A stretch of 62,128 nt of DNA. Source: Candidatus Coatesbacteria bacterium. GTDB taxonomy: Bacteria > RBG-13-66-14 > B26-G2 > WVWN01. The stretch covers positions 916,525-978,652 of the forward strand of contig CP070633.1 in the NCBI GenBank assembly GCA_020356085.1, written 5' to 3'. The notes under the pieces were generated by a model. That model did not search any database, was not told where the DNA came from, and saw nothing but the letters and a program-made list of their open reading frames with translations. Position 1 is the stretch's first letter. Every line of letters begins with the position of its first letter. The position numbers were made by a program, and so were the translations under genes. This document shows, one piece after another, positions 7,786-44,241 of this stretch.

Positions 7786-7833
7786 CTCTTTAACATTATA
7801 GCCGGTGGAAAGCGCCGGGTCAAGGCGAGCACG

Positions 7834-7862
7834 AAAAAACCGGCCGCGAGGGCCGGTTTTTT
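7834..7862 (-). terminator. Intrinsic terminator downstream of tRNA-Met
   Basis: A6-CCGGCC-GCGAG-GGCCGG-T6 hairpin immediately 3' of the tRNA on the minus strand. Confidence 0.75.
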
Positions 7863-7864
7863 AT

Positions 7865-7938
<74 letters not shown>

Positions 7939-7980
7939 GGCGGATGATACTATAGCGGGGTGGAGTTGTCAAGGGCCGCC

Positions 7981-10180: not shown

Positions 10181-10187
10181 CGCGCGA

Positions 10188-10781: not shown

Positions 10782-10785
10782 AGCG

Positions 10786-11793: not shown

Positions 11794-12980
11794 GCCTCCG
11801 CCTCCCCCCTCGCCCCCAGCAACTCCTCGTAGAGCGCGGCGTAGCGGTCGACCATCTTATTTACCGTGAACTCGAGCGTCACGCGGGACCTCCCCGCCCG
11901 TCCCAGCGCGCGCCGCCGCGCGGGATCTCGGGCGAGCTCGGCGACGGCCGAGGCGAGCGCGGCCTCGTCGCCGACGGGGACCAGCAGGCCGGTGCGGCCG
12001 GGCTCGACGAGCTCCGGGTTGCCGCCCACGTCGGTCGCGATTACCGGCAGCCCCGCCGCCATCGCCTCCAGCAAGGCGATCGACAATCCCTCCGACGGCG
12101 TCGGCAGCACAAAGAGGTCCGAGCCGGCGAGCACGCGTGGGATGTCGTCCCGCAATCCCACGAGGTGTACGCGGTCCGCCAGGCCGAGCTCCGCGGCCTG
12201 GGCCTGGATCTTGGGGCCGCCCCATTGCCCCTCGCCGGCGACGACCAACCGGAGGTCAAGCCCCTCCGCGGCGAGGCGGGCGACGGCGTGCAGCAGGTCG
12301 GCGTGGCCTTTGGAGTCGAGCGAGGCCACGACCGTCGCCACTACGGCCCACCGCGGCGCGCCGATCTCGTACCGAAACGACAACCGCTCCGCGCCGGCCT
12401 CGATAAAAGGCGCCGCCTCCACGCCGTTGGGGATATGAGTAACTTTCTCGGCCGGAACGCGACACCGCTTTCGAAGTTCGGCCGCGATTTCGGCGGAGAC
12501 GGCGACGTGCCGGTCGAACAGTCGCCGTAAACAGAGGCAATAAAAGCGCGCGGACAGGTCGCGCCTTACTTGCAGCGTGAAGCGGTCGAGGTTAATCTGG
12601 CCGTGCTGCGTAGAGACCACGGCCGCGCCGGCGCGGCGGCCGCCCAGCGCGGCCACGAAGTCGGCCCGGCGGGTATGGGTGTGAAGGACGTCGAACCCCT
12701 CCCGCCGCACGAGCGCGGCGTACCGGCGGGCCGCCAAGAGATCGTGCTTGGTCCTGATCTCGGCGTCGTACACGCGGACGCCGGCCTCGCGGAACCGCGC
12801 CACGTACGGTTGGGAGGCGGGCGCCGCGAGGGCGGTATCGAAACCCCGGGCCGGGAGCTCCCGGCATAGCGCCAGTACCGTCGCGAGGTTGCCGCCCCAC
12901 GACGAGTAGTTGTGGACCATTAATACTTTACGGCGGGTTCCCACGGCCGGGACTCTCCCTGGCGATTGCGGAAACGGCAC
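11790..12980 (-). CDS. Glycosyltransferase family 4 (GT-B, group 1)
   Basis: 396 aa with the C-terminal signature PTPSEGLSIALLEAMAAGLPVIATDVGGNPELV. The start may instead be the internal MVHNYSS. Confidence 0.85.
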   Translation of the reverse strand: MPFPQSPGRVPAVGTRRKVLMVHNYSSWGGNLATVLALCRELPARGFDTALAAPASQPYVARFREAGVRVYDAEIRTKHDLLAARRYAALVRREGFDVLHTHTRRADFVAALGGRRAGAAVVSTQHGQINLDRFTLQVRRDLSARFYCLCLRRLFDRHVAVSAEIAAELRKRCRVPAEKVTHIPNGVEAAPFIEAGAERLSFRYEIGAPRWAVVATVVASLDSKGHADLLHAVARLAAEGLDLRLVVAGEGQWGGPKIQAQAAELGLADRVHLVGLRDDIPRVLAGSDLFVLPTPSEGLSIALLEAMAAGLPVIATDVGGNPELVEPGRTGLLVPVGDEAALASAVAELARDPARRRALGRAGRSRVTLEFTVNKMVDRYAALYEELLGARGEAEA

Positions 12981-18750: not shown

Positions 18751-20742
18751 CTAGCGGACGTAACCCAACGCCCGCAACGATCGCTCGAGGCCCGGCGGGA
18801 TGACGGTCTCCGCTGGCGTCAGCGCGCGCCGCCGCGCCGCCTCCCGCCGGCGGGCCAGCTCTCCCCGCAAAAAAGCCAGCGCCGCGGCGTGGTCGGCTTC
18901 CGCGACCAGATTGCGTTCCTGCCGCGGGTCGCCGTCGCGGTCGTACAGGTACTCGAGGCCCGTGTTCTCGTCTTTCAGGTAGAAATAGGCGGGAGAAACC
19001 AATCCGCTCAGCTCCAGCGTGTGCACCGGCGGATCCAGCTTGGGGAAGTGCATCTCGTGAACTCCCTCCAACAAAAGGGTCCGAGGCGGCACGGGCTGCT
19101 CGCCCGTCAGGTAGGGCGTCAAATCCTCGCCCTCCCACGCCTCCGGCGCCGGCTCGCCGACCAGCGCGAGGATCGTCGGCGCGACGTCCAGCAAGTTTAC
19201 CAAACCCGCCACCCGGGCGGGCTCGTAACCGGGCCCCCGAATCAGGAGAGGGATCTCGGCGACTTCCCGATGAAGGGAGGTCGCGTGGAACCAACGGCCG
19301 TGTTCTTTGAACTCCTCGCCGTGGTCCGCGAGGAGGACGAGGATAGGTTCCTCCTCCCCCGCGGCGAGCGGCAGCGCGCGGTCGAGGAAATCGCCCACTA
19401 CGACGTCCATCCGGCGGATTTCGGCGTCGTACAGCGCGACGGAGAGGGCGACCTCCTCTTCTCCGTACGGCGGCACGAAGAACGGGTCGCGGGCGTATTG
19501 TTCGAAGAAGTAATTGCCGACCATTACCGGCTGGAGGCGGTCGGCGGGGAGCCGGTCCATCAACGGCTGCAGCTCCGCGGCATATTCGGGCCGGACGACG
19601 TTGGGATTGTGGGGCTCCATGTAATGCACGAGGAAGAACCGCGGGGCCCCCCCCGAAACGCGGGTCCAGAACTCGAGCCGCCGGTTGAGCTCCAAGCCGT
19701 CGCGCGTCGGGCGCCACAGCGGCCCTAAAAACCGAGGCGTTAAGACGGGCCGCGTCAGGAGACGCGCTACGAACGTGGGGGGGCCGGCCCCCTCCAGGAC
19801 GCTTCCGCCGCCGCCGTTGTCGAGAACGTCGAACCCGTCCGCCATCGCGGCGGGACGCGTGATATTGGGGTTCGCCGATACGCCGAGGGTGGTATAGCCG
19901 GCCGCGCGGAGACGCTCGGCGAGCGTTACCGCCGCCTCCGGCATCCCCACCAAGCGGGAGGTTACGCCGTGCGTGCTCGGCGGAACGGAGGCGAACAGCG
20001 AGGCCATCGCGGGCTTGGTCCAAGAGGAGGTGGTGTAGGCTTCGCGGAACACGACGCTCTCGGCCGCCAGCGCCTCCACGCGCGGCGCGTACGTCCGGAA
20101 GGCGCCGTACGCCCGGAGGCGGTCCGCGCGAAACGCGTCCACCACGACGAGGTAGACGTCGGGCTTGTGGGCCCGCGGGCCGGCCGCCCGCGCGAGGGCC
20201 CAGAGCTCGGCCCCGGCGAACGGAAGCAGCAGCACCAGCGAGAGAACGCGCAACGCGGCGACGCCGCCGACGGTTTTACCGATCCGCCACCGCCCCAGGT
20301 TCCGCATTAGGCTATAGAGCGCGGCCGCCCCCGCGATCCAGGCGACGGTCGTTACCGCGCCGAGCGCCATTATGAACGGCCGCGCCCGCGCGACGTTCGC
20401 GTACATCAAGGGGTGGTCGTAGGTGGCGACAAAACGGGCCACGGCCGCCGTCGTCACGGCGACCGCCAAGACGAAGAACGCCGGCGAGGCCAACGCCACC
20501 TCCCGGCGCCTCACCGCCAGGAGGTAATACGCGGTCGCGGCGACGGCAAAGAGGGCCGTAGTCAAAACCACCAACCACAGCGCCTCGACGCCGAACAGCA
20601 GCTGATAAAAGCGACGCGGGATAGCCCAGAAGCTGCCCTCGCCGCGGAGGGCGCCCAGGCCGTACTCGGCCGCCGCGGCCAAAACGCCTCCGCTAACGGA
20701 GGCGCACGCCACTCGAGCCAGGTATTTACCGTAGGCCTTCAC
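18751..20742 (-). CDS. Membrane-anchored sulfatase / alkaline-phosphatase-superfamily enzyme (LtaS or phosphoethanolamine-transferase-like architecture)
   Basis: 663 aa. About 6 N-terminal TM helices are followed by a catalytic domain that starts PDVYLVVVDAFRADRL (the sulfatase metal and nucleophile region). Confidence 0.7.
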   Translation of the reverse strand: MKAYGKYLARVACASVSGGVLAAAAEYGLGALRGEGSFWAIPRRFYQLLFGVEALWLVVLTTALFAVAATAYYLLAVRRREVALASPAFFVLAVAVTTAAVARFVATYDHPLMYANVARARPFIMALGAVTTVAWIAGAAALYSLMRNLGRWRIGKTVGGVAALRVLSLVLLLPFAGAELWALARAAGPRAHKPDVYLVVVDAFRADRLRAYGAFRTYAPRVEALAAESVVFREAYTTSSWTKPAMASLFASVPPSTHGVTSRLVGMPEAAVTLAERLRAAGYTTLGVSANPNITRPAAMADGFDVLDNGGGGSVLEGAGPPTFVARLLTRPVLTPRFLGPLWRPTRDGLELNRRLEFWTRVSGGAPRFFLVHYMEPHNPNVVRPEYAAELQPLMDRLPADRLQPVMVGNYFFEQYARDPFFVPPYGEEEVALSVALYDAEIRRMDVVVGDFLDRALPLAAGEEEPILVLLADHGEEFKEHGRWFHATSLHREVAEIPLLIRGPGYEPARVAGLVNLLDVAPTILALVGEPAPEAWEGEDLTPYLTGEQPVPPRTLLLEGVHEMHFPKLDPPVHTLELSGLVSPAYFYLKDENTGLEYLYDRDGDPRQERNLVAEADHAAALAFLRGELARRREAARRRALTPAETVIPPGLERSLRALGYVR

Positions 20743-22058: not shown

Positions 22059-22086
22059 AAAAAGGCGGCCTTTCGGCCGCCTTTTT
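22059..22086 (+). terminator. Intrinsic terminator
   Basis: A5-GGCGGCC-TTTC-GGCCGCC-T5, 25 nt after the stop at 22034. Confidence 0.85.
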
Positions 22087-22138: not shown

Positions 22139-23584
22139 ATGCGGCCCATGCGGGTCCTCTTCATCTACAAGGACGTAACGCTCACCGAGCCGATGGGGAT
22201 ACTGTACCTCGCCTCCGCGCTGCAGGCGGCCGGCCACGACGTCGCGCTGGCGCTGTCGGCCCGGCCCGACTTCGAGGCCCGCCTCCGCGAGTTCGCCCCG
22301 GACGTCGTCGGCTACTCCATCACCACCGGCTTCCACCCCTACTACCTCGCGCTCAACCGACGCGTAAAGGATATGCTCGGCCGCCCGGTGGTGGCCGTCG
22401 TCGGCGGCCCCCACGCGACGTTCTTCCCGGAGGTGGTGGAGGAGGAGGGCGTCGACGTCGTGTGCCGCGGCGAGGGCGAGGAGACGATCGTGGACCTGGT
22501 CGAGGCGCTGTCCCGGGGCGAGGACCATACGGCCATCCCCAACCTATGGGTCAAGGAGAACGGGGCGGTCCACCGCAACGAGCTGCGGCCGCTGGTCTGC
22601 GAGCTCGACCGCCTGGCCTTTCCGGCCCGCGAGCTCCTCTACGACTACGACCCCTACATGCACGACGTTACGCTCAAGCACTTCTTCTCGAGCCGCGGTT
22701 GCCCCTACCTCTGCACCTACTGTTTCAACCACAAATTTAACGAGCTCTACCGGGGGAAGGGCGAGATTATCCGCCACCGCTCGGTCGACAACGTCCTGGC
22801 GGAGATCGACGACGTGCGCGCGCGCTACCCGCTGAAATTCGTCCGCTTCCTCTCCGACAACTTCACGATGTCGCGGGAGTGGGTCGCGGAGTTCGCCGAC
22901 AAGTACAGCCGCGACGTCGCGCTGCCGTTCAACTGCCACGTGCGCGCCAACCTGATTGACGCGGCGGTCGCCGCCGACCTCGGCCGGGCCGGCTGCCACT
23001 CGGTCCTGCTGGGCGTCGAGACCGGCGACGACTACCTCCGCAACGAGGTCCTGAAGCGCAAGATGTCGCGGGAGACCATCGTGGAGGCGTGCCGCTACCT
23101 CCGCGAGAACGGCGTCAACGTCTATACCCAGAACATCATCGGCCTGCCCGGCGAGACCTTCGAGCAGGCGCTCGCCACGCTCAAACTAAACCAGGATTGC
23201 CGGCCGGCGTTCGCCTGGGCCTCCCTCTTCATGCCCTACCCGGCTACGGAGTTGGCGCAGTACGCCGTCGCCGGCGGCCATTTCGACGGCGACTACGACC
23301 GCGTCTTCCATACCTTCCACCGCCACTCGGTCCTCCGCTTCGACGACGAGCGGACGCGCCGCCGCCTCACCAACCTCCACAAACTCTTCGGCGTGATGGT
23401 CGAGTGGCCGCTCCTGGGCCGCTTCGCCCGGGCGTTGTGCTCGCTGCCGCCGAACCCGCTGTACAGCGCCGTGTTTAAACTGTGGTACGGCTACACGAAC
23501 CGCCGGCGCATCTTCCCCTATCCGGTGGGCGTCAAGGGCTTCCTAGCCGGCGTTAAACGTTTCTTCCGGAAGGACGAGGCGTAG
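22139..23584 (+). CDS. B12-binding-domain radical SAM protein
   Basis: 481 aa. The N-terminal Rossmann-like cobalamin-binding region is (RVLFIYKDV...MGILYLASALQAAGHDVAL...VVGGPHATF). The radical-SAM cluster motif is SSRGCPYLCTYCFN (CxxxCxxC). Confidence 0.85.
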   Translation: MRPMRVLFIYKDVTLTEPMGILYLASALQAAGHDVALALSARPDFEARLREFAPDVVGYSITTGFHPYYLALNRRVKDMLGRPVVAVVGGPHATFFPEVVEEEGVDVVCRGEGEETIVDLVEALSRGEDHTAIPNLWVKENGAVHRNELRPLVCELDRLAFPARELLYDYDPYMHDVTLKHFFSSRGCPYLCTYCFNHKFNELYRGKGEIIRHRSVDNVLAEIDDVRARYPLKFVRFLSDNFTMSREWVAEFADKYSRDVALPFNCHVRANLIDAAVAADLGRAGCHSVLLGVETGDDYLRNEVLKRKMSRETIVEACRYLRENGVNVYTQNIIGLPGETFEQALATLKLNQDCRPAFAWASLFMPYPATELAQYAVAGGHFDGDYDRVFHTFHRHSVLRFDDERTRRRLTNLHKLFGVMVEWPLLGRFARALCSLPPNPLYSAVFKLWYGYTNRRRIFPYPVGVKGFLAGVKRFFRKDEA

Positions 23585-23586
23585 CG

Positions 23587-25302
23587 TTGGGTATCCGAAT
23601 CCCGCCAGCTTGGTACGTAGTGCTCCTCGCGGCCGTGGCGGGCGCGGCCGCGACGTGCCTCGTTCTCCAACTAAAACAACCCCTCGTCGCGGACGAGCCG
23701 CAGTTCGTCGACGTCGCCTTCTCGCTGGCCCACACCGCGCGGCCGATGGCCTTCTCCGGCTCGACGTGGAACGCCGTCCTGAGCCACCCGCTGCTCTACC
23801 ACTCCCTCCTTGCTGTCCCGGTGGGTTTCGCAGGCAAACTCCCGGAGGCGGCGCGGCTCGTCGGCCTGCTGGCCTTTTTCGCCACCGGCGCCTTCCTGTG
23901 GGCGCTGGCGCGGAAGGTGACGGGAGAGCGGTGGGGGCCGTTCTTGGCCGTCCTGCTCTACGGCCTGCACCCGCTGGCCCTCCAGTCGGCCCTCCTGGTC
24001 GAGATCGACACGACGCTGCTGCCGCTCTTGACGGTCGTCGGCGCATGGTACCTCGCGCGGCGCGGTTTCGACCTGGGCGGAGGCGGGTGGCTCGGCCTGG
24101 GCCTCCTCTTCGGCGTGTCGCTGGCGGCCAAGTTCACCACGCCGCCTCTCTTGCTCGGCGCGCTGGCCTTGTATTACGTGGGCGCGAGGCGGGGGCGGCA
24201 GCTGGCGTACGTGGCCGCGGCGGGAGGCGTGGGCGTCGCGCTGTTCGCCGCGTACTATTTTCCGTACTGCCTCCTCCTCGAGCTGCCCTGGCGGGAGGCG
24301 TTCGCGCACTCGTTCGGCCGCGCAACCGCCGGTGCCGTGACCGGCGGCCTGCTCCTCAAGCGAGCGATCAGACTCCTCCTATGGGTCGGCGTGCCGTTCC
24401 TGTTAACGTTCCTATTGTGGATCTTCCAGCAGGCGAGGCGGCGCCTGGCCCCCGTCAACGCCGCGGTAACGTACGCGGCCCTCGCCTCGCTAATACTCCT
24501 CGCCTTCTACCTGTTCGTCGGCGGCGACGGCTACGGCTTCCCCAAATACCACGCGCCGCTGGTACCGTTGGTCGCGCTGGCGCTGGGGGCGACGTTCGGG
24601 CCGCAACTGGCGCGCGAATCGAAATTTACGGTACTGTTCTTGTCGGGAACGGCTTTTATCTTTTACCTTCTGGTCGCGCGCGACCCGCTGCATTGGCCCT
24701 ACCTGGCGCGGGAGGCTACGGAGGTGCTCGGCGTTCGGGAAGGCGAGGTCCGTAAAGCGCTCGCGCTGACCGGCGCGTTCCTGACGCTGCCGGTAATAGC
24801 GTTCGTCGTGATGACGCGGCGGGGCGGCCGGACGATGTCGTTCGTTATATTGGCCGCGGCCGGCGGCGCCGCGCTGAACGTTTGGCACCTCCGCGCCGAC
24901 TACGAACACCGCTACAACTACGGCGAACGCGGCTTCCGGGAGGCGGTGGCGGCGCTGGAGGGCGGGCCGACCGACATGAACTACCTCCTCCCGGTGGACG
25001 TGGCGTTCGCGACCGGCTACCGCTACCCCCACGGCGCAACGGAGGAGGCCCTGGCCCGGGAGGAGGGGCTTTTCGAATGGGTGGAGGACCCGCGTACGGC
25101 GGCGATCGTGTTACGGGACTCGTACTACTTGCACGCGCCGTACCGGGCCGCGCTCCAGCACCCGTGGGCGCTTACGGTGCTTGAGATGAAGTACGACCTA
25201 AAGCGCTACGGGTCGTTCGCCGTGGCGTGGCGAAAAAAAGAGCTCTACCCCGTCCGCGCGGGCGGCCCGCCGCCGGAGGAAGAACCGATTCTCCTCGAGT
25301 AA
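23587..25302 (+). CDS. GT-C fold membrane glycosyltransferase, ArnT/PMT-like
   Basis: 571-aa polytopic ORF with a TTG start 2 nt after the preceding stop. The first loop has PLVADEPQFVDVAFSLA, followed by HPLLYHSLLAV. Confidence 0.65.
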   Translation: MGIRIPPAWYVVLLAAVAGAAATCLVLQLKQPLVADEPQFVDVAFSLAHTARPMAFSGSTWNAVLSHPLLYHSLLAVPVGFAGKLPEAARLVGLLAFFATGAFLWALARKVTGERWGPFLAVLLYGLHPLALQSALLVEIDTTLLPLLTVVGAWYLARRGFDLGGGGWLGLGLLFGVSLAAKFTTPPLLLGALALYYVGARRGRQLAYVAAAGGVGVALFAAYYFPYCLLLELPWREAFAHSFGRATAGAVTGGLLLKRAIRLLLWVGVPFLLTFLLWIFQQARRRLAPVNAAVTYAALASLILLAFYLFVGGDGYGFPKYHAPLVPLVALALGATFGPQLARESKFTVLFLSGTAFIFYLLVARDPLHWPYLAREATEVLGVREGEVRKALALTGAFLTLPVIAFVVMTRRGGRTMSFVILAAAGGAALNVWHLRADYEHRYNYGERGFREAVAALEGGPTDMNYLLPVDVAFATGYRYPHGATEEALAREEGLFEWVEDPRTAAIVLRDSYYLHAPYRAALQHPWALTVLEMKYDLKRYGSFAVAWRKKELYPVRAGGPPPEEEPILLE

Positions 25303-25338
25303 CGGCCTGGCGTACGAAGGGCAGAGACAGGAGGCACC

Positions 25339-26184
25339 GTGAAACCGCTCGCGGCCTTAATAATGCTCCTAACGTTAACGGCGTCGTTGACTTTAGCCGA
25401 GGAGGGACCCGTGGAAGAAAAAGCCGAATTCCCGGAAACCGAATGGGAAGAGATGCGCGCGCTAATGGAGAAAAAGGGAGCCGACGCCGTTATCGAGTTC
25501 GTCGCCGGCTTCGACGACGAACAACGCCGCCAGCTCTACTCGCTTGCCCAGCGCGGCTTCGCGTACCGCGACTGGGAAGGGAAGAACCTGGACGACCTCG
25601 CTACGGTCGTTCAGGCCGGCATCGCGGAGGGCCTGCGCCAGGCCCGGGCCGAAACCGACGCCGCCAAGGCGGCTAAATTACTCGACTACGCCAACGTCCT
25701 GTCGTACAATCTCGCCGCGGACCTCGCCGAGTGCTGGCCCGGCGATACGCTCCCGCGCGATAAACGCCACTTCGAGGCGGGCCTGAAGGCCGCCGCCGAC
25801 TGCCTCCGCTGGCGGGAGGAACTCGGGAAAGGCCCCTTCCCGTTCTCGATCGCCTACTGGGCCCACGGCATGCACCTCCTGTCGTTGGGCGAAACGCACG
25901 CCGCGCTCGAGGATTTCCGCAAATCGTACAAATTCGCCGTCGAATTCGCGAAGGCCGAAGGGAAGGACACCTCGCTGTCCGCGGAGGGCGAGTTCGGCGT
26001 ACTGCTGGCCGCCGGCTACGTCGGCCTGGCGGAATGGGTGCTGGGCGAAGACGCCGAAAAAGCGCATTACGAGGAGGCGATCAGCGCCTTCAAAGAGGGG
26101 GCGGAGAAATACCCGGACAAGAAGGACGATTTCCAATTCGGGATCGACCAGCTCGAGTGGGTTAAAGGGAAATTCATAAAATAA
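25339..26184 (+). CDS. Secreted helical-repeat protein (hypothetical)
   Basis: 281 aa with a signal peptide (LIMLLTLTASLTLAEE). The sequence is helix-rich and TPR-like, and no family was recognised. Confidence 0.5.
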   Translation: MKPLAALIMLLTLTASLTLAEEGPVEEKAEFPETEWEEMRALMEKKGADAVIEFVAGFDDEQRRQLYSLAQRGFAYRDWEGKNLDDLATVVQAGIAEGLRQARAETDAAKAAKLLDYANVLSYNLAADLAECWPGDTLPRDKRHFEAGLKAAADCLRWREELGKGPFPFSIAYWAHGMHLLSLGETHAALEDFRKSYKFAVEFAKAEGKDTSLSAEGEFGVLLAAGYVGLAEWVLGEDAEKAHYEEAISAFKEGAEKYPDKKDDFQFGIDQLEWVKGKFIK

Positions 26185-26218
26185 CCCGTTAAACGGACCA
26201 TCGCCGGAAGGAGGCGTC

Positions 26219-26593
26219 ATGCACGAAATATGCCACGTCGAGATTCCCTCCACCGACCACGCGAAGTCGAAGGAGTTTTACGAGAAGCTCTTCGGGTGGA
26301 AAGTGGAGCTGATTCCGGAGATGAACTACGCCATGTGGGAGGCGCCGGAGGGCCCGGGCGGCGGCTTTAACCTGGTGAAAGAGCCCTGCTCGTGCGAGGA
26401 GGGCTGCTGCCTGGTGTACATCCTGGTCGCCTCCGTCGACGACAAGGTGAAGGAGATCGAGGCCGCGGGCGGCAAGGTGCTCAAAGGGAAGACCGCCGTC
26501 GGCGACATGGGCTGGTTCGCGACGTTCCAGGACCCGGCGGGAGGCGTCGCCGCGCTGTACGAGAGCGCCAAGAAAGAACAAGCCGCGGCGTAA
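26219..26593 (+). CDS. VOC-family (glyoxalase/bleomycin-resistance/dioxygenase fold) protein
   Basis: 124 aa. MHEICHVEIPSTDHAKSKEFYEKLFGWKVE... is a typical VOC N-terminus. The RBS is GGAAGGAGG. Confidence 0.8.
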   Translation: MHEICHVEIPSTDHAKSKEFYEKLFGWKVELIPEMNYAMWEAPEGPGGGFNLVKEPCSCEEGCCLVYILVASVDDKVKEIEAAGGKVLKGKTAVGDMGWFATFQDPAGGVAALYESAKKEQAAA

Positions 26594-26632
26594 ACCGCTC
26601 CGTGGTCGGAGGGTAACGCAAGCCAGGGGGAC

Positions 26633-28135
26633 ATGGCTCGTAGCAAAGTCGAGGGAGCCGTTTTCGGCGTCGCCGTCGGCGCGGTGTGCTTCGCCGCGGC
26701 TGCGGCGATGCTGTCGTTCGGCGACATAACGCAGGACGACGCTTTTATATCGTTCCGGTACGCCGAAAACCTTGCCGCCGGGAACGGCCTGGTATACAAC
26801 GTCGGCGAACGCGTCGAGGGGTTTACGAACCTACTTTGGACGCTGTTCGTCGCGGCGGCGATTAAACTCGGGATCGCCGCGCCGGCCGCGGGGAGGGGAC
26901 TCGGGATTGCCTCCGCGGTGGTGGCGGTCGCGGTCACGGCCCTCCTGGCGCGACGCTACGCCCACGCCTATCTGGGAATCGTCGCCGCGGCGATGCTGGC
27001 CGCGAACGGTAATTTCCTAGTGGAGGGTGCCCAGGGCCTCGAGACGCCGTTTTTCGTGCTGATCGTCACGCTGGCGGCCTGGCGCGCGGCGGAGGAATAC
27101 GTCGCGCCGGGGCGGCGGCCTCTTTCCGCCCTCCTCCTTATAGTGACCTTCCTCACGCGGCCCGACGGCGCCCTAGTGGCCGTCGCCGCGTTCCCGTTCT
27201 ACCTCGCGACCGCCCGCGCCAACCCTCGCCGCCTCGCCGTGTGGCTGGGGAGCCTCGCGATAGCGGCCGTAGCGTATGAGGGGTGGCGCCTGGTTTACTA
27301 CGGCGCCTGGCTCCCCAATACCTGTCACGTTAGAATCGCGTTTGCGCCGGCGAGCTTGAAGTTCGGGCTTCGGTACACCGGCCTTTTCCTCTGGCGGTTT
27401 ACACCGCTTCTGCTCCTACTCCCGCTCGCCGCACGGCGCCGGCGCGTTTTCTATCCCGCGGCGGCGCTCATCCTCCTCTTTCTGGTTTACGTAACGGCGG
27501 TGGGCGGCGACATGAAGCCGACGGACCGCTTCTACCAACCGATAGTGCCGCTGCTGCTCGTGGCGGCCGCGGCCGCGGCGTACGACCTCGCGCGGGCGGC
27601 GACGTGGGTGACCCGGGCGGTGTGGGCGGCGTTGGCCGTCGCGCTCGTCGCGACCTCGCTGTTCCAAAACTTCCCGGGTTTCCGCTACGCGCAAAATTCG
27701 CGCCTTCCGCACGACCTCCACGTGGCCGCGGGAAAATGGCTCGCCGCCCACGCCCCGCCGGAGGCCACGCTGGCGACGACCGCCGCCGGCATTATCCCCT
27801 ACTACAGCGGCCTCCCCACCATTGACATGTGCGGCCTGACGGACCGTCACATCGCGCGCCACGGCGTGTGCACGTTTACGCTGCCCGGCCACGGACTCGC
27901 CGCAGCCGAATACGTCCTAGACCGGGAACCCGATTACGTTTTAATCTACGAGCTAATCTTCGCGCCGGAGCCGCCCTCCTACGAGGCGGTCGTCAGCCAG
28001 GCGCAGTGGCCGGCGACGCGCGAACTCGTAATGTCGCCGCGGTTCCGGGAGGAGTACGTAATGTCGCACGCGGCCGTGGCGCCCGGGTGGTACTTCGTCT
28101 ACTTCCTGCGCGCGGAGGCCGGCCGCCCTTTCTAA
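26633..28135 (+). CDS. GT-C-like polytopic membrane glycosyltransferase (DD-motif family, arabinofuranosyl/mannosyltransferase-like)
   Basis: 500 aa with 10 or more TM helices. The first loop has ...[40 protein letters not shown]..., a block I associate with uncharacterised bacterial GT-C-type enzymes. Confidence 0.6.
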
Positions 28136-28154
28136 GCGGTTACGAGGGGGATTT

Positions 28155-29198
28155 GTGGTTTCCGCTCTCGTCCTGAACATTCGCGCCAATCCGTGTACGA
28201 ACCGCTGCCGGCACTGCTGGGCGGAGGGGTCGCCGGACCATACTGCTAAGCCGACGGCGGAGGTGAAATCCACCCTCGAGGAGTTGGCCGCCGCGCTCCC
28301 TCTCCTCGAAGCCGCGGACTTCTTCCTACTCGACGAACCGACCAACCGCCCGGATTTCGTCGAGATCTTCGAATACGCCGCCGGCCTCGGCCTGCTCGGC
28401 CCCAACAGTTTCGTAGCGACCAACGGCTCCGGGCTGGCGCGCGCCGGTGCCGACACGTGGCGCCGTTTGCAAGCGACCGGTCTCAGGTATCTACAATTCA
28501 CCTTTTACGGCGTCGGCGAAACCCACGACCGGTTCGCGGGCCGGCGGGGCGCGTTCGACGACGTCGTCGCCGCCGTACGCGGCGCCGACGAGGCCGGCTT
28601 CCCGTGGTACGGCGCCGTGATACTCCGCCCCGGCGACGCCGGCGACGTTCGAGGGACGGTCGAATACGTCGAGAAGCTGGGCGCTCCCGAGAAGGTGGGT
28701 TATTTCGGGTACGCGGCGCAGGGCCGCGGGGCGAAAGGCCGCCGGCCGACGACGGAGGGGGAGGCAGAAAAGGCCTCGCTGGAGTCGGGTACCACCTTCG
28801 CCTCCGAACGCCGGCTGCGGGAGGCGATCCTGGCGGACGGCGAATTGTCGCAGCGACGGGTGGAGGAGTTATTTTGTCCGCCGCTCGTGCTGGAAGTGGA
28901 CGCCGGAGGCGAGGTTTCTTGCGGCGGCGCGTGCGACTCGGGCGGCCTCGCCGGCGCGGTGCCGGAATTAAAAACCCTCTTTTCCCTCGGTCGACTCGGC
29001 GATAAAACGCTGGCCGCCATGATAGAAGATTACCGGCAAGACCTGCCCGCGCCGTTACGGGCCGTCGCCGGCGTAACGTGGGGTCAGCTGGCCGCGCAAT
29101 ACGGCGACCCGGCGAACGAAGACCTGTTTTGGGCCGCCGACGTCGTAATCAGTAAGTGGGCCCGCGATTACCTCCGGGAGCGATACGGCCCGCGTTAA
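28155..29198 (+). CDS. Radical SAM protein
   Basis: 347 aa with a GTG start. The cluster motif NPCTNRCRHCW (CxxxCxxC) lies near the N-terminus. A C-terminal Cys-containing segment (CPP...SCGGAC) could bind an auxiliary cluster. Confidence 0.65.
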   Translation: MVSALVLNIRANPCTNRCRHCWAEGSPDHTAKPTAEVKSTLEELAAALPLLEAADFFLLDEPTNRPDFVEIFEYAAGLGLLGPNSFVATNGSGLARAGADTWRRLQATGLRYLQFTFYGVGETHDRFAGRRGAFDDVVAAVRGADEAGFPWYGAVILRPGDAGDVRGTVEYVEKLGAPEKVGYFGYAAQGRGAKGRRPTTEGEAEKASLESGTTFASERRLREAILADGELSQRRVEELFCPPLVLEVDAGGEVSCGGACDSGGLAGAVPELKTLFSLGRLGDKTLAAMIEDYRQDLPAPLRAVAGVTWGQLAAQYGDPANEDLFWAADVVISKWARDYLRERYGPR

Positions 29199-29242
29199 CG
29201 CTCCGGCCGCCGCGCCGGGTAGTCCCGCCCGAAACCGCCCCG

Positions 29243-29264
29243 CCCGCCCGGGCGGGTTTTTTTT
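29243..29264 (+). terminator. Intrinsic terminator closing the 22139..29198 operon
   Basis: CCCGCCCGGGCGGG hairpin followed by T8, 45 nt after the stop at 29198. Confidence 0.8.
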
Positions 29265-30318: not shown

Positions 30319-30351
30319 CGGTTGGCGCGGCCGTCGCCAGGATATTATTAT

Positions 30352-31083
30352 ATGGGGATGGGTTACGAACGCGCCGCGCCGTATTACGACCTCTTCGGCG
30401 CCAAGGACGACGGCGCCTTCCTGGCCGCGCTCCTCTCGCGGACCGGCGGGCCGGCGTTGGTCGTCGGCGCCGGGACGGCGCGGGAGGCGCTGCCGCTGGC
30501 GGCGGCGGGCGAGGAGGTCGTAGCCGTAGACCGCTCGGAGGCGATGCTCGCGGTGGCGGCCGATAAAACCGCCGCCCGGCGGCTCGGCGGCCGCCTCCGC
30601 CTCCTCCGCGCCGACGCGCGCGATTTCTCCCTTCGGCGCCGCTTCCCGCTCGTCGTCGCGCTCAACCTCTTCGCCCACTTCGTCGAGGAGGGCGAGGCCT
30701 CGGCCGCGCTCCGCAACTTCAGGGTCCACCTCGCGCCGGGGGGCCGCCTCCTCCTCAACGTCGAGACGCCGGCCTGGCGCCCCCCCGACCCGCCGGTCGA
30801 GGAGAGCCGCGAACTCGGCGACGGCCGGCGCCTCCGCCGGACCGTCAAGTACCGGCCGACGCGGCGCCCCCACGTCTACGCGATCGAGCTGTGGTTCGAC
30901 GTGCTCCACGGCGACCTGCTCCTGGACCGTATTCTAGAACGAGACGAAGTCCGCCTCTTCCGGCCGGACGAGGTCCGGCAACTCGCCGCGACGGCGGGCT
31001 TGCGCGTCGACGAGGTTTACGCCGACTTCGCCTCCGCGCCGCTGCAGGACTCCTCCCCCGAGGCGGTATTCGTATTTAAATAA
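30352..31083 (+). CDS. Class I SAM-dependent methyltransferase
   Basis: Motif I is ALVVGAGTAREALPLAAAGEEVVAVDRSEAML. The start is taken at the ATG at 30352 or 30358, whereas the ORF track uses the TTG at 30322. TATTAT elements lie directly upstream, so the mRNA may be leaderless. Confidence 0.8.
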   Translation: MGMGYERAAPYYDLFGAKDDGAFLAALLSRTGGPALVVGAGTAREALPLAAAGEEVVAVDRSEAMLAVAADKTAARRLGGRLRLLRADARDFSLRRRFPLVVALNLFAHFVEEGEASAALRNFRVHLAPGGRLLLNVETPAWRPPDPPVEESRELGDGRRLRRTVKYRPTRRPHVYAIELWFDVLHGDLLLDRILERDEVRLFRPDEVRQLAATAGLRVDEVYADFASAPLQDSSPEAVFVFK

Positions 31084-34588: not shown

Positions 34589-35665
34589 TTAGCCGCCGGC
34601 GAGGGCGTCGAACGTCGCCCCCATTATGTCGGCGATACGGCTCGGGTAGCCGACGTTCTCGACGGCGAACGAGAAGAACGCTATCCGTCCGCCGCCGGCC
34701 GGCCGCACCATACCGTAGCAGCGGCCGTCGTCCGGGCCGACGAACAACGCTTCCGCTCCCGCGGGGAGGTCGAAGCCGTCGCCCCAGTTGCCGATTACGG
34801 TCAGGTCGTTCGACAGCCGATACGCGAGGCGCGGGAGCGTCACCGTCTCGGCGACGGCGACCTCCTCCACCTGCGTGTCGGCCTGGTAGGAGGTAATGCC
34901 CAAGGTCTCGCGGCAGAACGCCGTCCGGCCGCGGGAGGCGTCCGAGAGGTAGTTCTGCGATACGAGCCACAAGCGGCCGCCGCCAGCGACGTAGGCGGCC
35001 ATGGCGGCCTCGTCCGCCGCCGAGATCACCTTAGGCCGCGCGTCCAGGCCGTTGAACCACACTACCAACGGGTAGGGGGCGAGGCGGTCCGCCGGGGGGC
35101 CGTCGCGCCCCGCCCGGACGACGTACACCTCGTACGGGACGCCGAGTCGCTCGAGCGCGGCGACGTATTTGGCGTCGACGTCGACGCTGTATTGGTTGCC
35201 GTTACCCGGGCCGTCGTCGTCGTCGACGAGCAACACCGGCGCGCCGCCCAAGACCTTTACGAAGGCCGGCTCGCGGCGGGGCGGCGTAAGGTCCAGGCGA
35301 CGGAAGACGTCGACCACGGCGGCCGGCGGATCCCGTCGCAGGTAGGCGCGGAACGTCCCCGCGTCCGCCGCGGTCCGGAGGATAAACGTCGTCGCGCCCT
35401 TCGCCCGGGCGAGGCGGACCTCTTCGATCCGGCCGACGGCGGCGGGGACGACGTCGCCGCGGACCTCCGCGGCCACCGTAAGTACGAGGGTGTGCGGCTC
35501 GGCGCCCGCCTCGCACGTGAACGTCGTCGGCCCGTCGAGGCCGACGGTGAATTGGGTATAGACCTCGTAGGCGTCGACGGCGACGGAGCGGACGGTGGCG
35601 CCCCCGGCCGCCGCGGCCGCGGCCGCCAGCGCGAGGATTACGAGCGGGAGAGGCGCCGTCCTCAC
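34589..35665 (-). CDS. Secreted hypothetical protein
   Basis: 358 aa with a signal peptide (LVILALAAAAAAAGG). It overlaps the upstream CTD-protein gene by 4 nt. No family was recognised. Confidence 0.5.
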   Translation of the reverse strand: MRTAPLPLVILALAAAAAAAGGATVRSVAVDAYEVYTQFTVGLDGPTTFTCEAGAEPHTLVLTVAAEVRGDVVPAAVGRIEEVRLARAKGATTFILRTAADAGTFRAYLRRDPPAAVVDVFRRLDLTPPRREPAFVKVLGGAPVLLVDDDDGPGNGNQYSVDVDAKYVAALERLGVPYEVYVVRAGRDGPPADRLAPYPLVVWFNGLDARPKVISAADEAAMAAYVAGGGRLWLVSQNYLSDASRGRTAFCRETLGITSYQADTQVEEVAVAETVTLPRLAYRLSNDLTVIGNWGDGFDLPAGAEALFVGPDDGRCYGMVRPAGGGRIAFFSFAVENVGYPSRIADIMGATFDALAGG

Positions 35666-36267
35666 TTCACGACCGCGATCTTACCGGTGTGCTTCTCGCC
35701 GGACTGGGTTTCGACGACGAACAGGTAGGTGCCGCCGGAAACCAGGTCGCCGTGCTCGTTGCGGCCGTCCCATTGCAGCGGGTCGCCCTCGAGCGCGATG
35801 ACCTCCCGGCCTTCCATGTCGAACACTTTCGCGCTCGAGCCGATGGGCGCGCCGGCGAACGTCAGGAGGGGCTGCGGAAGTGAAACGTCGAACGGGTTCG
35901 GCGCGGCGTAAATCTCCAACTCTACCGGCGCCTCGCCCCGGACGAGGATGTTGACCGTCGAACGCGAGCCCAGGCCGCCGGCTTCCTCGACGACGATCTG
36001 GTACTCGCCGCCGGCGTCGGCCGGAACGCGCCACATTATCATGCCGTCGGTCTCGCCGCCGTACTCGCCGAGGCTTTTGCGCCGGCCGTCCCACTTCAAC
36101 CACAGGTCGACCGGGTTGGTGGTCATGTTACGCCAGGTGACTTTTACGACCTGGCCGGGCTTCAACTCGGCTCCCTCGGGGGGATTGTTAAGCGTGAGTT
36201 CGCCGATACCGGCGGCGGCGCCGGCCAACGCCAACGCCGTAAACGCCCAGATGCGAAGAAACTTCAT
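35662..36267 (-). CDS. Secreted protein with FlgD-Ig-like / T9SS-type C-terminal sorting domain
   Basis: 201 aa with a signal peptide. The C-terminus reads ...APNPFDVS...AKVFDMEGREV...WDGRNEHGDLVSGGTYLFVVETQSGEKHTGKIAVVK. Its features (PNPF, GxY, terminal K-x-x-VVK) match T9SS type-A CTDs. Confidence 0.65.
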   Translation of the reverse strand: MKFLRIWAFTALALAGAAAGIGELTLNNPPEGAELKPGQVVKVTWRNMTTNPVDLWLKWDGRRKSLGEYGGETDGMIMWRVPADAGGEYQIVVEEAGGLGSRSTVNILVRGEAPVELEIYAAPNPFDVSLPQPLLTFAGAPIGSSAKVFDMEGREVIALEGDPLQWDGRNEHGDLVSGGTYLFVVETQSGEKHTGKIAVVK

Positions 36268-36360
36268 ATCTCTTTATCCCTCCCGCGTTTAAGGGTTTGC
36301 GAGCCGGGATTTTCCGTTCCTTCTCTACCGCCAATATAACATAGGGCTTGGGCGCCCGCA

Positions 36361-36387
36361 AAGGAAAAGCCGCCCCGGAGGGGCGGC
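36361..36387 (-). terminator. Intrinsic terminator after the PorV-like gene
   Basis: On the minus strand, GCCGCCCC-UCC-GGGGCGGC followed by UUUUCCUUU. Confidence 0.7.
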
Positions 36388-36419
36388 ATAACTTGCGCAA
36401 CCGTCCGGCCCGGCAGGTC

Positions 36420-37340
36420 CTAAAACAATATCCCGAGCGAGAGGCGGTGGGTAGCGCCGAAGATGCCCATGTCGGCATAGGCGTAGTCGGCCTGCAGACC
36501 TAGCCGTTCGGAGGGCGAGTACTTGAAGCCCAGGCCGCCGGTCAGGCCGTCCTCGTCGTAGTTCCCCTTGTAGCCAGCGCGCGCCGCCACGGTATCCATG
36601 AACCAGTATTCCAGGCCGCTGTTGACGTGCACGGTGTCTCGGTCGTCAAACTTCACCGCGTCCGCCGCGACGGTTAGGCTATTGTTCTCGCCGCCGAAGG
36701 GCAGCAGATACGCCGCGCCCCCTCGAATCGCCAGCGGGAGCGGGTCCCCCTCCTGGATGAACTTCATCTCGCCGCCCAGGTGCGCAAGGGAGGCGCCAGC
36801 CGAGAGCCCCGGCAGCGGCGTGTCGGCCGTCACGCCAAAGGCCCCCGCGAACGTGGAGGCGCTCTCGACTTCAATCTTCTCGGTTATATACTCCGCCGCT
36901 ACGCCGACCGAGAGGAAGGGCAGCAGCCGCCGCGCGTAGCCGAACGACAACAGCAGGTCGCTGGCGCTGAATTCGCCGGTGAGCTCGCCCTGTTCGTTGC
37001 GGCCTTCGATGGTGCCCAGGTCCACGCGCCCGGCGGAGAACGCGAACGTGCCCAGGTTCAACAACGGGTACGACAGGCCGAGGTATTCGTACCGCACGTC
37101 CTCCAGCCATTCGTTGTGGGTGAACGCGACGGCGCCGCGATCGTAGACGGCCAAGCCGGCGGGGTTCCAGTACAGCGCGTCCGGCCCCTCCGCGAGGGCG
37201 GCCTGCGCCTCCCCCATCCCGACGGCGCGGGCGCCGACGCCGATTTTCAGAAAAGCGGCGGCCGAGGAGCCCGCCTCCGCGGCGCCGGCGACGCCCGCCG
37301 CGACCACCATCGCTACTGCTACCGATATTACTTTACTCAT
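36420..37340 (-). CDS. PorV/PorQ-family outer-membrane beta-barrel protein
   Basis: 306 aa with a signal peptide. It carries the signature block AAAFLKIGVGARAVGMGEAQAALAEGPDALYWNPAGLA and ends in a beta-signal with terminal Phe (LSLGILF). Confidence 0.7.
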   Translation of the reverse strand: MSKVISVAVAMVVAAGVAGAAEAGSSAAAFLKIGVGARAVGMGEAQAALAEGPDALYWNPAGLAVYDRGAVAFTHNEWLEDVRYEYLGLSYPLLNLGTFAFSAGRVDLGTIEGRNEQGELTGEFSASDLLLSFGYARRLLPFLSVGVAAEYITEKIEVESASTFAGAFGVTADTPLPGLSAGASLAHLGGEMKFIQEGDPLPLAIRGGAAYLLPFGGENNSLTVAADAVKFDDRDTVHVNSGLEYWFMDTVAARAGYKGNYDEDGLTGGLGFKYSPSERLGLQADYAYADMGIFGATHRLSLGILF

Positions 37341-44003: not shown

Positions 44004-44241
44004 ATGTCTCTCTCGGCGGGGGGCCCGCGACGGCAAAGTCGGAAGACTAAAACCAACGCTGCCGCGCATAACGTTAAAACGCGCCACCCGGTACGACTAC
44101 GGAGCGAGGCGAGCACGGCGCGCGTTGTCCAACTATAAACTGGGGTTCGGCGCTTAGCCCCTAAGAATTCGACCGCGTCGCCGCTCGCCCACAAACCCGA
44201 TTCGTACCACGCATTAGCTCAACGCGCCCAAGAGCGCCGCG

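Follow-up and report, generated by a model that had tools for sequence, protein, structure and literature searches.

A possible envelope-glycosylation locus with exchangeable modules and a class B radical SAM enzyme in a Candidatus Coatesbacteria genome

What could be encoded by six closely packed genes in which two radical SAM enzymes stand beside two membrane glycosyltransferases of the GT-C type, and do these genes serve one pathway? The locus lies in a window of 62,128 nucleotides (the whole stretch of DNA that was analysed) from an uncultured bacterium, and a first-pass annotation had described it as a terminator-delimited operon matching no characterised pathway; such a gene combination was indeed not found described in the literature searched. 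The six ORFs (g1 to g6) are all co-directional on the + strand at 22139-29198, where that annotation had placed them, with gaps of exactly 2, 36, 34, 39, and 19 nt in order; ORFs, gaps, and flanking terminators were all confirmed from the sequence. The features are as follows.

22059..22086, + strand: upstream intrinsic terminator (12-bp hairpin, T5 tail)
22139-23584 (likely start 22148), + strand: g1, putative class B radical SAM enzyme, B12-binding domain at the N-terminus (481 aa, Pfam)
23587-25302, + strand: g2, polytopic PMT_2 (ArnT/PMT-like) GT-C (571 aa, Pfam PMT_2)
25339-26184, + strand: g3, probably exported, all-helical, weakly TPR-like protein of an unnamed family (281 aa)
26219-26593, + strand: g4, small single-domain VOC (glyoxalase/bleomycin-resistance fold) protein, predicted cytoplasmic (124 aa)
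26633-28135, + strand: g5, AftB-like GT-C (GT-C_A) with a C-terminal periplasmic alpha/beta domain (500 aa)
28155-29198, + strand: g6, radical SAM enzyme, optional member of the locus (347 aa, Pfam Radical_SAM 4.6e-12)
29239..29264, + strand: downstream intrinsic terminator (7-bp GC stem at 29239-29256, then T8)

All six ORFs have a coding-like GC3 (0.79 to 0.94), and a Shine-Dalgarno-like sequence of the GGAGG/GGGGGA type lies 5' of each of g2 to g6. The upstream terminator (-21.2 kcal/mol, z = -3.7 versus shuffles) ends the preceding lipoprotein gene and looks bidirectional because an A-tract lies 5' and a T-tract 3' of it. The hairpin and T-tract of the downstream terminator (-15.9 kcal/mol, z = -1.4) are common to relatives without g6, and collinearity with one of these (L172) resumes at about window position 29236. 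The genes form a tightly packed, operon-like unit bounded by terminators. In g1, a TATAAA box shares bases with the first ATG. Homologues begin where the second ATG lies (MRVLFIY...), which may put the true start of g1 9 nt further downstream.

The gene identities given in the first-pass annotation (a class B radical SAM enzyme, two GT-Cs, a VOC protein, and a second radical SAM enzyme) proved right or nearly so, and the motifs CPYLCTYC (g1), CTNRCRHC (g6), and DD (g5) are all present. g1 matched the Pfam families B12-binding (9.5e-21) and Radical_SAM (1.5e-25), and its CxxxCxxC motif (C188/C192/C195) is invariant in 30 homologues. The top fold matches of its AF2 model (pLDDT 93.2) were AprD4, MgmA, TsrM, CysS, OxsB, and TokK. 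In the NCBIfam search, g1 remained far below every family cut-off, the best scores being those for BchE (121 bits versus a cut-off of 481) and HpnJ (118 versus 578). By its predicted domains, g1 is a radical SAM enzyme of class B (B12-domain) that falls in no named family, and its orthologue group is highly conserved (56 to 72% identity between contigs assigned to different phyla). No TM segments were predicted in g1, which we read as cytoplasmic; g1, g4, and g6 are all predicted to be soluble. In g6, the CxxxCxxC motif (C14/C18/C21) is invariant in 18 homologues, and the C-terminal region is short and Cys-poor, with about three conserved Cys (C241, C256, and C260) that leave room for one auxiliary cluster at most; no Pfam SPASM match was obtained, and the 7-Cys SPASM signature is absent. 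All NCBIfam scores of g6 were ≤49 bits (cut-offs, ≥225), with weak matches to NirJ, AhbC, PqqE, and TIGR04347 and no named family reached. The g6 family is rare (22 clusters in 5.8 billion proteins). The implication of the earlier proposal that the two enzymes belong to no well-characterised family held, both lying outside BchE, HpnJ, PqqE, and NirJ with scores far below the NCBIfam cut-offs.

The PMT_2 score of g2 (37.5 bits) exceeds the Pfam gathering score (26.1), and the protein has approximately 11 to 13 hydrophobic segments, with an Asp-Glu motif (ADEPQF) directly after TM1. A PDB sequence search with g2 gave no match; in profile-profile comparison it matched the g5 family across the TM core (97% probability, E 6e-11). 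The PDB sequence match of g5 was AftB (9dlf, 2.6e-5), with the DD motif (D35/D36) aligned; D36, invariant in 36 homologues, and R176 correspond to AftB D62 and R221, and both are invariant. Foldseek ranked AftB first for the AF2 model of g5 (pLDDT 92.4, pTM 0.92; TM 0.64 to 0.66), followed by ArnT, AftA, ALG12, and PglB. The catalytic residues of g5 agree with those in the AftB structure paper (PMC12041299). g2 and g5 both belong to the GT-C_A type of membrane glycosyltransferase, and g5 retains the nucleophile Asp and a phosphate-binding Arg of AftB. In one g5 homologue (P0196), TPR repeats form part of the same polypeptide.

The remaining two proteins are smaller. g3, for which the Pfam search returned no family, appears from its sequence to carry an export signal and to be helical and TPR-like: weak TPR matches were obtained in 9 of 19 family members, and a PDB search gave a further weak match, to a designed TPR protein. 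Its family comprises 373 clusters (E ≤ 1e-3) among 1.84 billion representatives, with W36, N124, L129, C132, W133, G148, G177, and H179 invariant. The description of g3 as a secreted helical-repeat protein holds for the present protein, with its signal-peptide-like N-terminus and weak TPR character, but most family members have no such N-terminus. g4 matched the Pfam families Ble-like_N (1.5e-9) and Glyoxalase (2.8e-9).

We tentatively read the locus, with something short of an even chance, as a lineage-specific, co-transcribed envelope-glycosylation locus with exchangeable modules and radical-SAM sugar tailoring. A polyprenyl-phosphate-borne sugar, its carrier made by enzymes encoded elsewhere in the genome, would be passed by g2, and by g5 where present, to a periplasmic acceptor (an envelope glycan or a protein), with g3 as a putative acceptor-binding partner. 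On the cytoplasmic side, g1 would perform radical chemistry on the sugar or the lipid-linked precursor; C-methylation is the default of its class, and an AprD4-like dehydration or an HpnJ-like ring rearrangement would be equally open. g4 and g6 may add further, dispensable tailoring. For this reading speak the operon build, the GT-C identities, the core synteny, and the sugar contexts of g1 relatives. A somewhat less probable alternative is that the neighbours, whether co-transcribed or merely adjacent in this lineage, share no pathway: the substrate of g1 (and of g6) would have nothing to do with the GT-Cs, which would belong to the genome's large general repertoire of envelope glycosyltransferases.

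Gene order was compared in ten related Coatesbacteria-type contigs, some of which cover the cluster only in part. g1-g2-g4 were retained wherever their positions were covered (g4 in all contigs covering its position) and were never parted by rearrangement; g3 was usually present, and amino-acid identities across g1-g2-(g3)-g4 were 63 to 93%. The 2-nt gap between g1 and g2 recurs in L173. This retention, the tight spacing, and the single terminator-bounded unit argue against neighbours without a common pathway. In contrast, g5 and g6 alternate in one slot and occur together only in the present genome: g5 is missing in L165, L170, and L171, and L172 (89% DNA identity) lacks g6 through a clean 1.12-kb indel (window 28117-29236). 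Each of the two is dispensable to the locus. Moreover, the cluster is interrupted in some relatives, either by a Fic gene (between g1 and g2) or by an opposite-strand TPR+HTH pair (between g2 and g3). Such independent gain and loss of g5 and g6, and the insertion of unrelated genes, speak for neighbours without a common pathway; the insertions also weigh against a glycosylation locus. The locus is loose and modular, not a fixed system, and has at least three configurations, among them the six-gene set; of the conserved six-gene unit that had been proposed, with its two radical SAM enzymes and two GT-Cs as partners, only g1-g2-(g3)-g4 is kept in the lineage. Even this lineage synteny says little about shared function, because unrelated flanking genes (an LtaS-like sulfatase-fold gene, PyrE, and RuvB) are retained as well.

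Relatives of g1 elsewhere were surveyed at 84 loci (mostly 30 to 51% identity to g1). A small GT2 was present in 21 loci, an NAD epimerase/dehydratase in 18, a GT4 in 17, a DegT aminotransferase in 8, and a Wzx-type flippase in 7; 26 loci had a SPASM radical SAM partner (13 of 37 such ORFs ≤300 nt from the g1-family gene). The best NCBIfam matches of the GT2s were AglJ, dolichyl-phosphate hexose transferase, and ArnC, all of which produce polyprenyl-phosphate sugars, and donors of this type are used by GT-Cs. In L004, a g1 orthologue (59% identity) is clustered with a PMT_2 protein, an AglJ/ArnC-like GT2, two epimerases, a TPR protein, and three further B12 radical SAM enzymes; in L144, a g1-like gene adjoins a g5-like gene; and the g1 superfamily also occurs in DPANN archaeal glycan clusters. 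These recurrent contexts speak against a GT-C-unrelated role, and radical-SAM tailoring of a sugar is the best reading because distant g1 homologues sit in glycan clusters. On the other side, only 5 of the 84 loci have a GT-C-like ORF, and the g1 orthologues of other lineages in L003 (72% identity) and L174-176 (64%) are solitary among housekeeping genes, with no GT-C within 10 kb; the earlier notion of a conserved radical-SAM/GT-C pairing is not supported here. The conservation of g1 across phyla suggests a g2-independent substrate, and distant g6 homologues are found in unrelated gene contexts. The genome is rich in GT-Cs, and a GT-C adjoining another gene is unsurprising in this window, since it holds 7 GT-C genes in 62 kb. 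Neither the operon nor the window as a whole encodes a polyprenyl-phosphate sugar synthase, a flippase, or a nucleotide-sugar enzyme to supply the donor, which also weighs against a glycosylation locus. The evidence supports a dedicated pathway of six genes only in part.

It is improbable that g1 alters a lipid chain or head group (as do HpnP/HpnR/HpnJ, GrsA/B, or ladderane-type enzymes) and that the GT-Cs glycosylate the lipid outside. ArnT-type GT-Cs do act on lipids, g6 is weakly similar to the tetraether synthase Tes/GDGT-MAS, and the matches of g1 include, besides HpnJ, TIGR04072 ("lipid biosynthesis B12-binding/radical SAM protein," 87 bits) and HpnR (78 bits). However, the lipid-family scores are 4- to 8-fold under the cut-offs, the window holds no squalene-hopene cyclase, Hpn, fatty-acid, or ether-lipid genes, distant g1 homologues neighbour sugar enzymes and not lipid enzymes, and the superfamily is found in glycan clusters of DPANN archaea. 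Membership of g1 or g6 in a characterised pathway with partners elsewhere (BchE, HpnJ/HpnP, PqqE, NirJ/Ahb, or peptide maturases), for which speak generic superfamily-level similarity only and a downstream methyltransferase weakly like the daptide-type RiPP methyltransferases (78.7 bits versus a 175-bit cut-off), is very improbable and essentially refuted by the family cut-offs, neither enzyme being near any of them, g6 having no 7-Cys signature, and the window holding no PQQ, heme d1, bacteriochlorophyll, or hopanoid genes and no precursor-peptide-like gene noticed without a dedicated small-ORF search.

The envelope-glycosylation reading can be set against the closest known systems. g6 resembles SPASM/twitch enzymes (PqqE, NirJ/AhbC/AhbD, BtrN-like) in its N-terminal CxxxCxxC motif and its weak best matches, and pairs of B12 and SPASM radical SAM enzymes recur in glycan clusters; it differs in its few C-terminal Cys and its tiny family, and it matches the HMM of the recurrent SPASM partner family only generically (42.9 bits). 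With Arn-type lipid-carrier glycosylation (ArnC GT2 plus ArnT GT-C) and PMT/TMTC protein O-mannosylation the locus shares a PMT_2 GT-C with an Asp-Glu motif after TM1, a TPR-like g3 reminiscent of the TPR modules that TMTC and many bacterial PMT_2 proteins carry, and, among distant g1 homologues, adjoining ArnC/AglJ-like GT2 genes; unlike these systems, it has no ArnC-like synthase, flippase, or sugar-nucleotide enzymes at hand, and g2 has no detectable PDB sequence relative. We are aware of no radical SAM enzyme in any characterised Arn or PMT system, and literature searches were unproductive. AftB is the mycobacterial terminal beta-(1->2)-arabinofuranosyltransferase, a GT-C_A enzyme (PDB 9dlf/9dlh). 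g5 differs from it in identity (only 20 to 21%), in the NCBIfam AftB equivalog score (39.9 bits versus a cut-off of 1050), in length (500 versus 617 to 669 aa), and in its setting, with no decaprenyl-phosphate-arabinose pathway genes nearby and a host that is not a mycolate actinobacterium; it shares the fold, the nucleophile Asp, a phosphate-binding Arg, the C-terminal periplasmic alpha/beta domain, and an N-terminal (A/Q)DD...R..N(L)..G.G.V(F/Y)N.GERVE motif. AprD4 is the sugar-acting radical SAM 1,2-diol dehydratase of apramycin biosynthesis (PDB 6fd2). Identity of g1 to AprD4 is approximately 20%, and the AprD4 equivalog score is 83 bits versus a cut-off of 500; yet in g1 a radical SAM barrel follows a Rossmann-type B12-binding domain, as in AprD4 and the class B cobalamin radical SAM methylases (MgmA, TsrM, CysS, TokK, and OxsB), and AprD4 is its best PDB match in sequence (9e-20) as well as in fold (E 2e-21, TM 0.66), which counts for the tailoring of a sugar.

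Six ORFs were found in the window at exactly the coordinates and spacing that the first-pass annotation had assigned to a terminator-delimited operon (gaps of 2, 36, 34, 39, and 19 nt, all ORFs on the + strand), and a hairpin/T-tract terminator was indeed present on either side.

Genes and terminators of the locus (window coordinates)
22059-22086: upstream terminator, 12-bp hairpin with T5 tail (-21.2 kcal/mol, z = -3.7)
22139-23584, + strand: g1, B12-domain radical SAM enzyme, 481 aa
23587-25302, + strand: g2, PMT_2 GT-C enzyme, 571 aa
25339-26184, + strand: g3, putatively exported TPR-like protein, 281 aa
26219-26593, + strand: g4, VOC-fold protein, 124 aa
26633-28135, + strand: g5, AftB-like GT-C enzyme, 500 aa
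28155-29198, + strand: g6, second radical SAM enzyme, 347 aa
29239-29264: downstream terminator, GC stem with T8 tail (-15.9 kcal/mol)

Third-position GC was 0.79 to 0.94 across g1 to g6, which matches expectation for real genes at a genome GC of 66%, and a Shine-Dalgarno-like purine run was found 5' of each of g2 to g6. The upstream terminator is probably bidirectional, since an A-tract lies in front of its hairpin. The first ATG of g1 is overlapped by a TATAAA box and the N termini of homologues line up with its second ATG (22148), so that the true start may lie three codons downstream. No Rfam RNA, including a cobalamin riboswitch, was detected near the operon, two tRNAs being the sole Rfam matches in the window. 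This parts list and the operon-like build are the secure part of the analysis.

The B12-binding radical SAM identity of g1 was upheld. Both Pfam domains scored well over their cut-offs (PF02310, B12 binding, 74.3 bits versus 32.1; PF04055, radical SAM, 90.8 bits versus 29.5), arranged as in class B radical SAM enzymes with an N-terminal Rossmann-type B12-binding domain followed by the radical SAM core, and the cysteines of the CxxxCxxC motif (C188/C192/C195) were invariant among homologues. The structural model (pLDDT 93.2) matched AprD4 best, followed by MgmA, TsrM, CysS, OxsB, and TokK, all of class B; AprD4 was also the top PDB match by sequence (9e-20). The PDB entry for AprD4 is titled as a 1,2-diol dehydratase, not a methylase. 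AprD4 is not known to use cobalamin. As the closest solved relative is a dehydratase, domain content does not fix the chemistry of g1, for which methylation, dehydration, and rearrangement are all candidates. Scores of g1 were below the NCBIfam equivalog cut-offs for BchE (121 versus 481 bits), HpnJ (118 versus 578), HpnR (78 versus 650), PhpK (97 versus 600), and AprD4 (83 versus 500), and all NCBIfam families touched (also MJ_1487, ApyD, and ladderane-type) were 4- to 8-fold under cut-off. By these scores, g1 is a class B radical SAM enzyme outside the named families. The curated cut-offs, together with the lack of partner genes in the window, rule out membership in BchE, HpnJ, PqqE, NirJ, or peptide-maturase pathways.

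Both GT-C genes of the first-pass annotation likewise stood, g2 by the PMT_2 model and its motif and g5 by its fold and AftB residues. g2 scored 37.5 bits against Pfam PMT_2 (cut-off, 26.1). Approximately 11 to 13 of its segments are hydrophobic, and TM1 is directly followed by an Asp-Glu motif (ADEPQF). These features place g2 among the GT-C glycosyltransferases, which are polytopic membrane proteins carrying an acidic catalytic motif in external loop 1. Aligned to the family profile of g5 (hhalign), the g2 profile gave 97% probability over the TM core. g5 itself matched no Pfam family. Its N terminus aligned with mycobacterial AftB, many of its homologues carry the JGI name "arabinofuranosyltransferase," and the top PDB matches of its model (from an alignment of 36 sequences; pLDDT 92.4, pTM 0.92) were two AftB structures (TM 0.64-0.66), followed by ArnT, AftA, ALG12, and PglB/OST. 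In AftB, D62 is the proposed nucleophile and R221 binds phosphate (PMC12041299). These residues correspond to D36 and R176 of g5, both invariant in the 36 sequences, and on the modeled fold and the conserved Asp and Arg g5 is an AftB-like GT-C_A enzyme. Orthology to AftB was rejected (39.9 bits versus an NCBIfam equivalog cut-off of 1050), and no genes of the decaprenyl-phosphate-arabinose (DPA) pathway were seen in the window. As the locus shows, the AftB-like GT-Cs, a group of interest for drugs against tuberculosis, extend far beyond the actinobacteria in the form of distant relatives that retain the catalytic residues. Among 74 distant g5-type loci, a g1-like neighbor occurred in one (L144), and neighbor clustering revealed no strongly conserved partner; an LtaS-like sulfatase-fold membrane protein adjoined g5-like genes in four distant loci (L101, L105, L106, and L127). 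GT-C genes are unusually dense in the window: its 62 kb hold seven, namely g5, a GT87 gene, and five of the PMT_2 type, in the intervals 154-2865, 23587-25302, 26633-28135, 42729-44087, and 47078-50278.

g3 has a signal-peptide-like N terminus, is all-helical, and gave weak TPR signals. Sequence and profile searches of the PDB returned no meaningful match for g2 or g3; with a more diverse g3 profile, the sole match was a designed TPR protein. The g3 family is unnamed, is without a Pfam model, and consists of helical proteins of around 255 aa (96 clusters at E ≤ 1e-30, rising to 373 at E ≤ 1e-3); most of it is missing the signal sequence of g3, and its members (P0263-P0412) share an invariant N...L..CW...G...G.H signature. 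The VOC identity of g4 was borne out by two Pfam models over cut-off (Ble-like_N, 37.9 bits versus 24.5; Glyoxalase, 37.8 versus 20.6), which identify it as a small VOC-fold (glyoxalase/bleomycin-resistance superfamily) protein. g6 contains a canonical CxxxCxxC motif and, in its C-terminal half, the conserved cysteines C241, C256 (partly), and C260. SPASM is a C-terminal 7-Cys motif binding two auxiliary 4Fe-4S clusters; g6 had neither a PF13186 match nor a 7-Cys motif, and a single twitch-like auxiliary cluster is possible at most. Neither g1 nor g6 fell in a named radical SAM family. The g6 family comprised 22 clusters in 5.8 billion proteins, and its distant members (L166, L168, and L169) lay in mutually unrelated contexts (a polytopic protein, beta-propeller-like proteins, and methyltransferases). 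In L166, the polytopic protein (7674-9989; 771 aa, membrane, no Pfam family) is followed 11 nt downstream by the g6 homologue (41% identity). A role of g6 as anaerobic sulfatase maturase for the "sulfatase" encoded upstream was rejected, no anSME being among its NCBIfam matches. That sulfatase-fold protein (18751-20742, - strand) is membrane anchored, with 4 N-terminal TM segments, and its formylglycine position reads, by eye, Thr-Lys-Pro-Ala-Met, where a Cys/Ser-x-Pro-x-Arg motif is expected, and it was dismissed as a partner for g6. From this reading, its activity may be that of an LtaS/EptA-type phosphotransferase and not of a sulfatase.

The best-supported functional reading of these parts is an envelope glycosylation locus, which we hold tentatively, at close to an even call. 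Two GT-C_A enzymes (g2 and g5) would take sugars from polyprenyl-phosphate carriers and attach them to an acceptor in the periplasm, which g3, exported and TPR-like, would be likely to bind as a partner. Tailoring of the sugar or the carrier-linked precursor would fall to g1, a soluble enzyme, together with g4 and, where present, g6. The main rival explanation, in which g1 and g6 are mere neighbors of the GT-Cs, is doubtful and still a serious contender; that the genome is rich in GT-Cs speaks for it. No ArnC/AglJ-type polyprenyl-phosphate sugar synthase was found within the 62-kb window. A five-gene UDP-sugar set 9 kb upstream of the operon (7981-12980, - strand), partly conserved in locus L001, encodes a UDP-GlcNAc 2-epimerase, a DegT aminotransferase, a hexapeptide acetyltransferase, a GFO/IDH/MocA oxidoreductase, and a GT4, and resembles pathways to 2,3-diacetamido sugars.

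Conservation of the locus was assessed in ten related contigs (63 to 93% amino acid identity), each covering it wholly or partly.

Configuration of the locus in the window and ten related contigs
Window: g1, g2, g3, g4, g5, and g6 all present
L172, L173: g1 to g5 present, g6 absent; 89% nucleotide identity to the window
L085, L086: g1 to g5 present, g6 absent
L088: g1 to g5 present, g6 absent; Fic gene (5770-6927) between g1 and g2
L089: g1 not covered, g2 to g5 present, g6 absent; opposite-strand TPR and HTH genes (1796-3185) between g2 and g3
L087: g1 to g3 not covered, g4 and g5 present, g6 absent
L165: g1, g2, g4, and g6 present, g5 absent, g3 a 19-aa remnant
L170: a putative partial ORF for g1, g2, g3, g4, and g6 present, g5 absent; Fic gene (621-1787) before g2
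L171: g1 not covered, g2, g3, g4, and g6 present, g5 absent

Across the ten contigs, g1, g2, and g4 were constant at every covered position and g3 was usual; in the slot after g4, g5 and g6 alternated, both occurring together only in the window. The expectation that the six-gene order is kept in relatives thus failed: the locus is modular and lineage restricted, and two radical SAM enzymes with two GT-Cs is one of three configurations. L172 was collinear with the window, with 89% nucleotide identity over g1 to g5 and 87% again from the terminator on, and the g6-bearing 1.12 kb (28117-29236) was reduced to approximately 50 nt (11485-11536 of L172), a clean presence/absence polymorphism bounded by the stop codon of g5 and the terminator common to L172. 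Such indels and insertions favor the explanation by mere proximity. Order conservation at such depth is weak evidence of shared function, because unrelated flanking genes, among them an LtaS-like sulfatase-fold gene, PyrE, RuvB, DUF6642, and the genes for two small envelope proteins, a lipoprotein, and a methyltransferase, were equally syntenic. The methyltransferase downstream of the locus (30322-31083) is a remnant of 33 to 35 residues in L086 (13844-14218) and L087 (1954-2058). The window also carries RuvABC, PyrE, ValS, and, at 35662-37340 (- strand), two markers of type IX secretion, one PorV-like and the other with a CHU_C sorting domain, which fit an FCB-related lineage. dnaA (52371-53783, - strand) adjoins a tRNA and PRPP synthetase and lies at the cumulative GC-skew minimum (~52 kb), which suggests that the chromosomal replication origin is probably at approximately 50000-54000.

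Beyond the lineage, g1 had 1795 homologues at E ≤ 1e-10, with a tight orthologue tier (56 to 94% identity, ~43 clusters) that included proteins labeled Planctomycetota and Acidobacteriota. Some orthologues were solitary (L003, 72%; L174-176, 64%), a 10-kb surrounding search finding no GT-C, and in 84 g1-relative loci used for neighbor clustering (80 from GTDB species genomes, 30 to 51% identity, and four closer relatives) a GT-C-like ORF was found in only 5; both the solitary orthologues and this rarity of linkage argue for g1 being a bystander. The recurrent neighbors were a SPASM radical SAM enzyme (26/84 loci), a small GT2 (21/84), an NAD epimerase/dehydratase (18/84), a GT4 (17/84), a DegT aminotransferase (8/84), and a Wzx flippase (7/84), together with GT9 genes and methyltransferases. 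The 26 loci contained 37 SPASM-type ORFs, 34 of them codirectional with a g1-family gene and 13 at most 300 nt from one, and some loci carried 3 to 4 copies of each radical SAM type. The best NCBIfam matches of the small GT2 were AglJ, dolichyl-phosphate hexose transferase, and ArnC, which are makers of polyprenyl-phosphate sugars. One g1 orthologue (L004, 59%) lay in a large cluster that contained, besides three more radical SAM enzymes of the B12 type and one of the SPASM type, a PMT_2 GT-C, a small GT2, two NAD epimerase/dehydratases, a TPR protein, and methyltransferases. Across DPANN archaea and many bacterial phyla without cultured members, homologues of g1 (30 to 51%) recurred in glycan clusters (L005-L084; for example, L038, L079, L083, L013, and L022). 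From gene content, B12 and SPASM radical SAM enzymes accompanying glycan genes look like an unannotated sugar-tailoring theme, and this association with glycan and polyprenyl-phosphate-sugar genes in candidate phyla and DPANN is the more interesting lead, reaching beyond the coordinates of the operon.

We infer a tie of g1 to lipid-linked sugars from three observations: its superfamily neighbors include polyprenyl-phosphate-sugar synthases and sugar-nucleotide enzymes, L004 joins a g1 orthologue to a PMT_2 enzyme and a polyprenyl-phosphate-sugar-type GT2, and the nearest solved relative, AprD4, acts on sugars. The radical-SAM-tailored glycan of the first-pass annotation survives as the best-supported reading for g1, with confidence just short of half, and its six-gene unit gives way to three configurations. 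A lipid-tailoring locus is improbable, sub-threshold family similarities being all that favors it. A wider proposition, speculative and rather unlikely, is that g1-type enzymes, often with a SPASM/twitch partner, would be a widespread unrecognized class acting in DPANN archaea and in uncultured bacteria of anaerobic habit, where they would tailor nucleotide sugars or sugars linked to polyprenyl phosphate (C-methylation, deoxygenation, epimerization, or ring contraction being possible) and that the Coatesbacteria locus would wire such tailoring directly to GT-Cs installing an unusual sugar on the envelope.

Being lineage restricted and without a predicted product, the locus has its worth as a lead, not a result. 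If g1 tailors a lipid-linked or nucleotide sugar, radical SAM chemistry would be added to bacterial envelope glycan synthesis, and a way into a large enzyme family, unannotated and recurring in candidate-phyla glycan clusters, would be opened. In the literature searched, we found no described system that combines radical SAM and GT-C enzymes and no pertinent work on Coatesbacteria, in agreement with the first-pass annotation, which knew of no characterized pathway of such composition. Most known examples of comparable radical SAM chemistry concern either the sugars of antibiotics (AprD4 and GenK) or the head groups of hopanoids and archaeal lipids, and it is the sugar-acting AprD4 to which g1 is closest among solved enzymes; on the favored reading, the locus would be a form of envelope glycosylation by carrier lipids and GT-Cs in which the tailoring enzymes are unusual.
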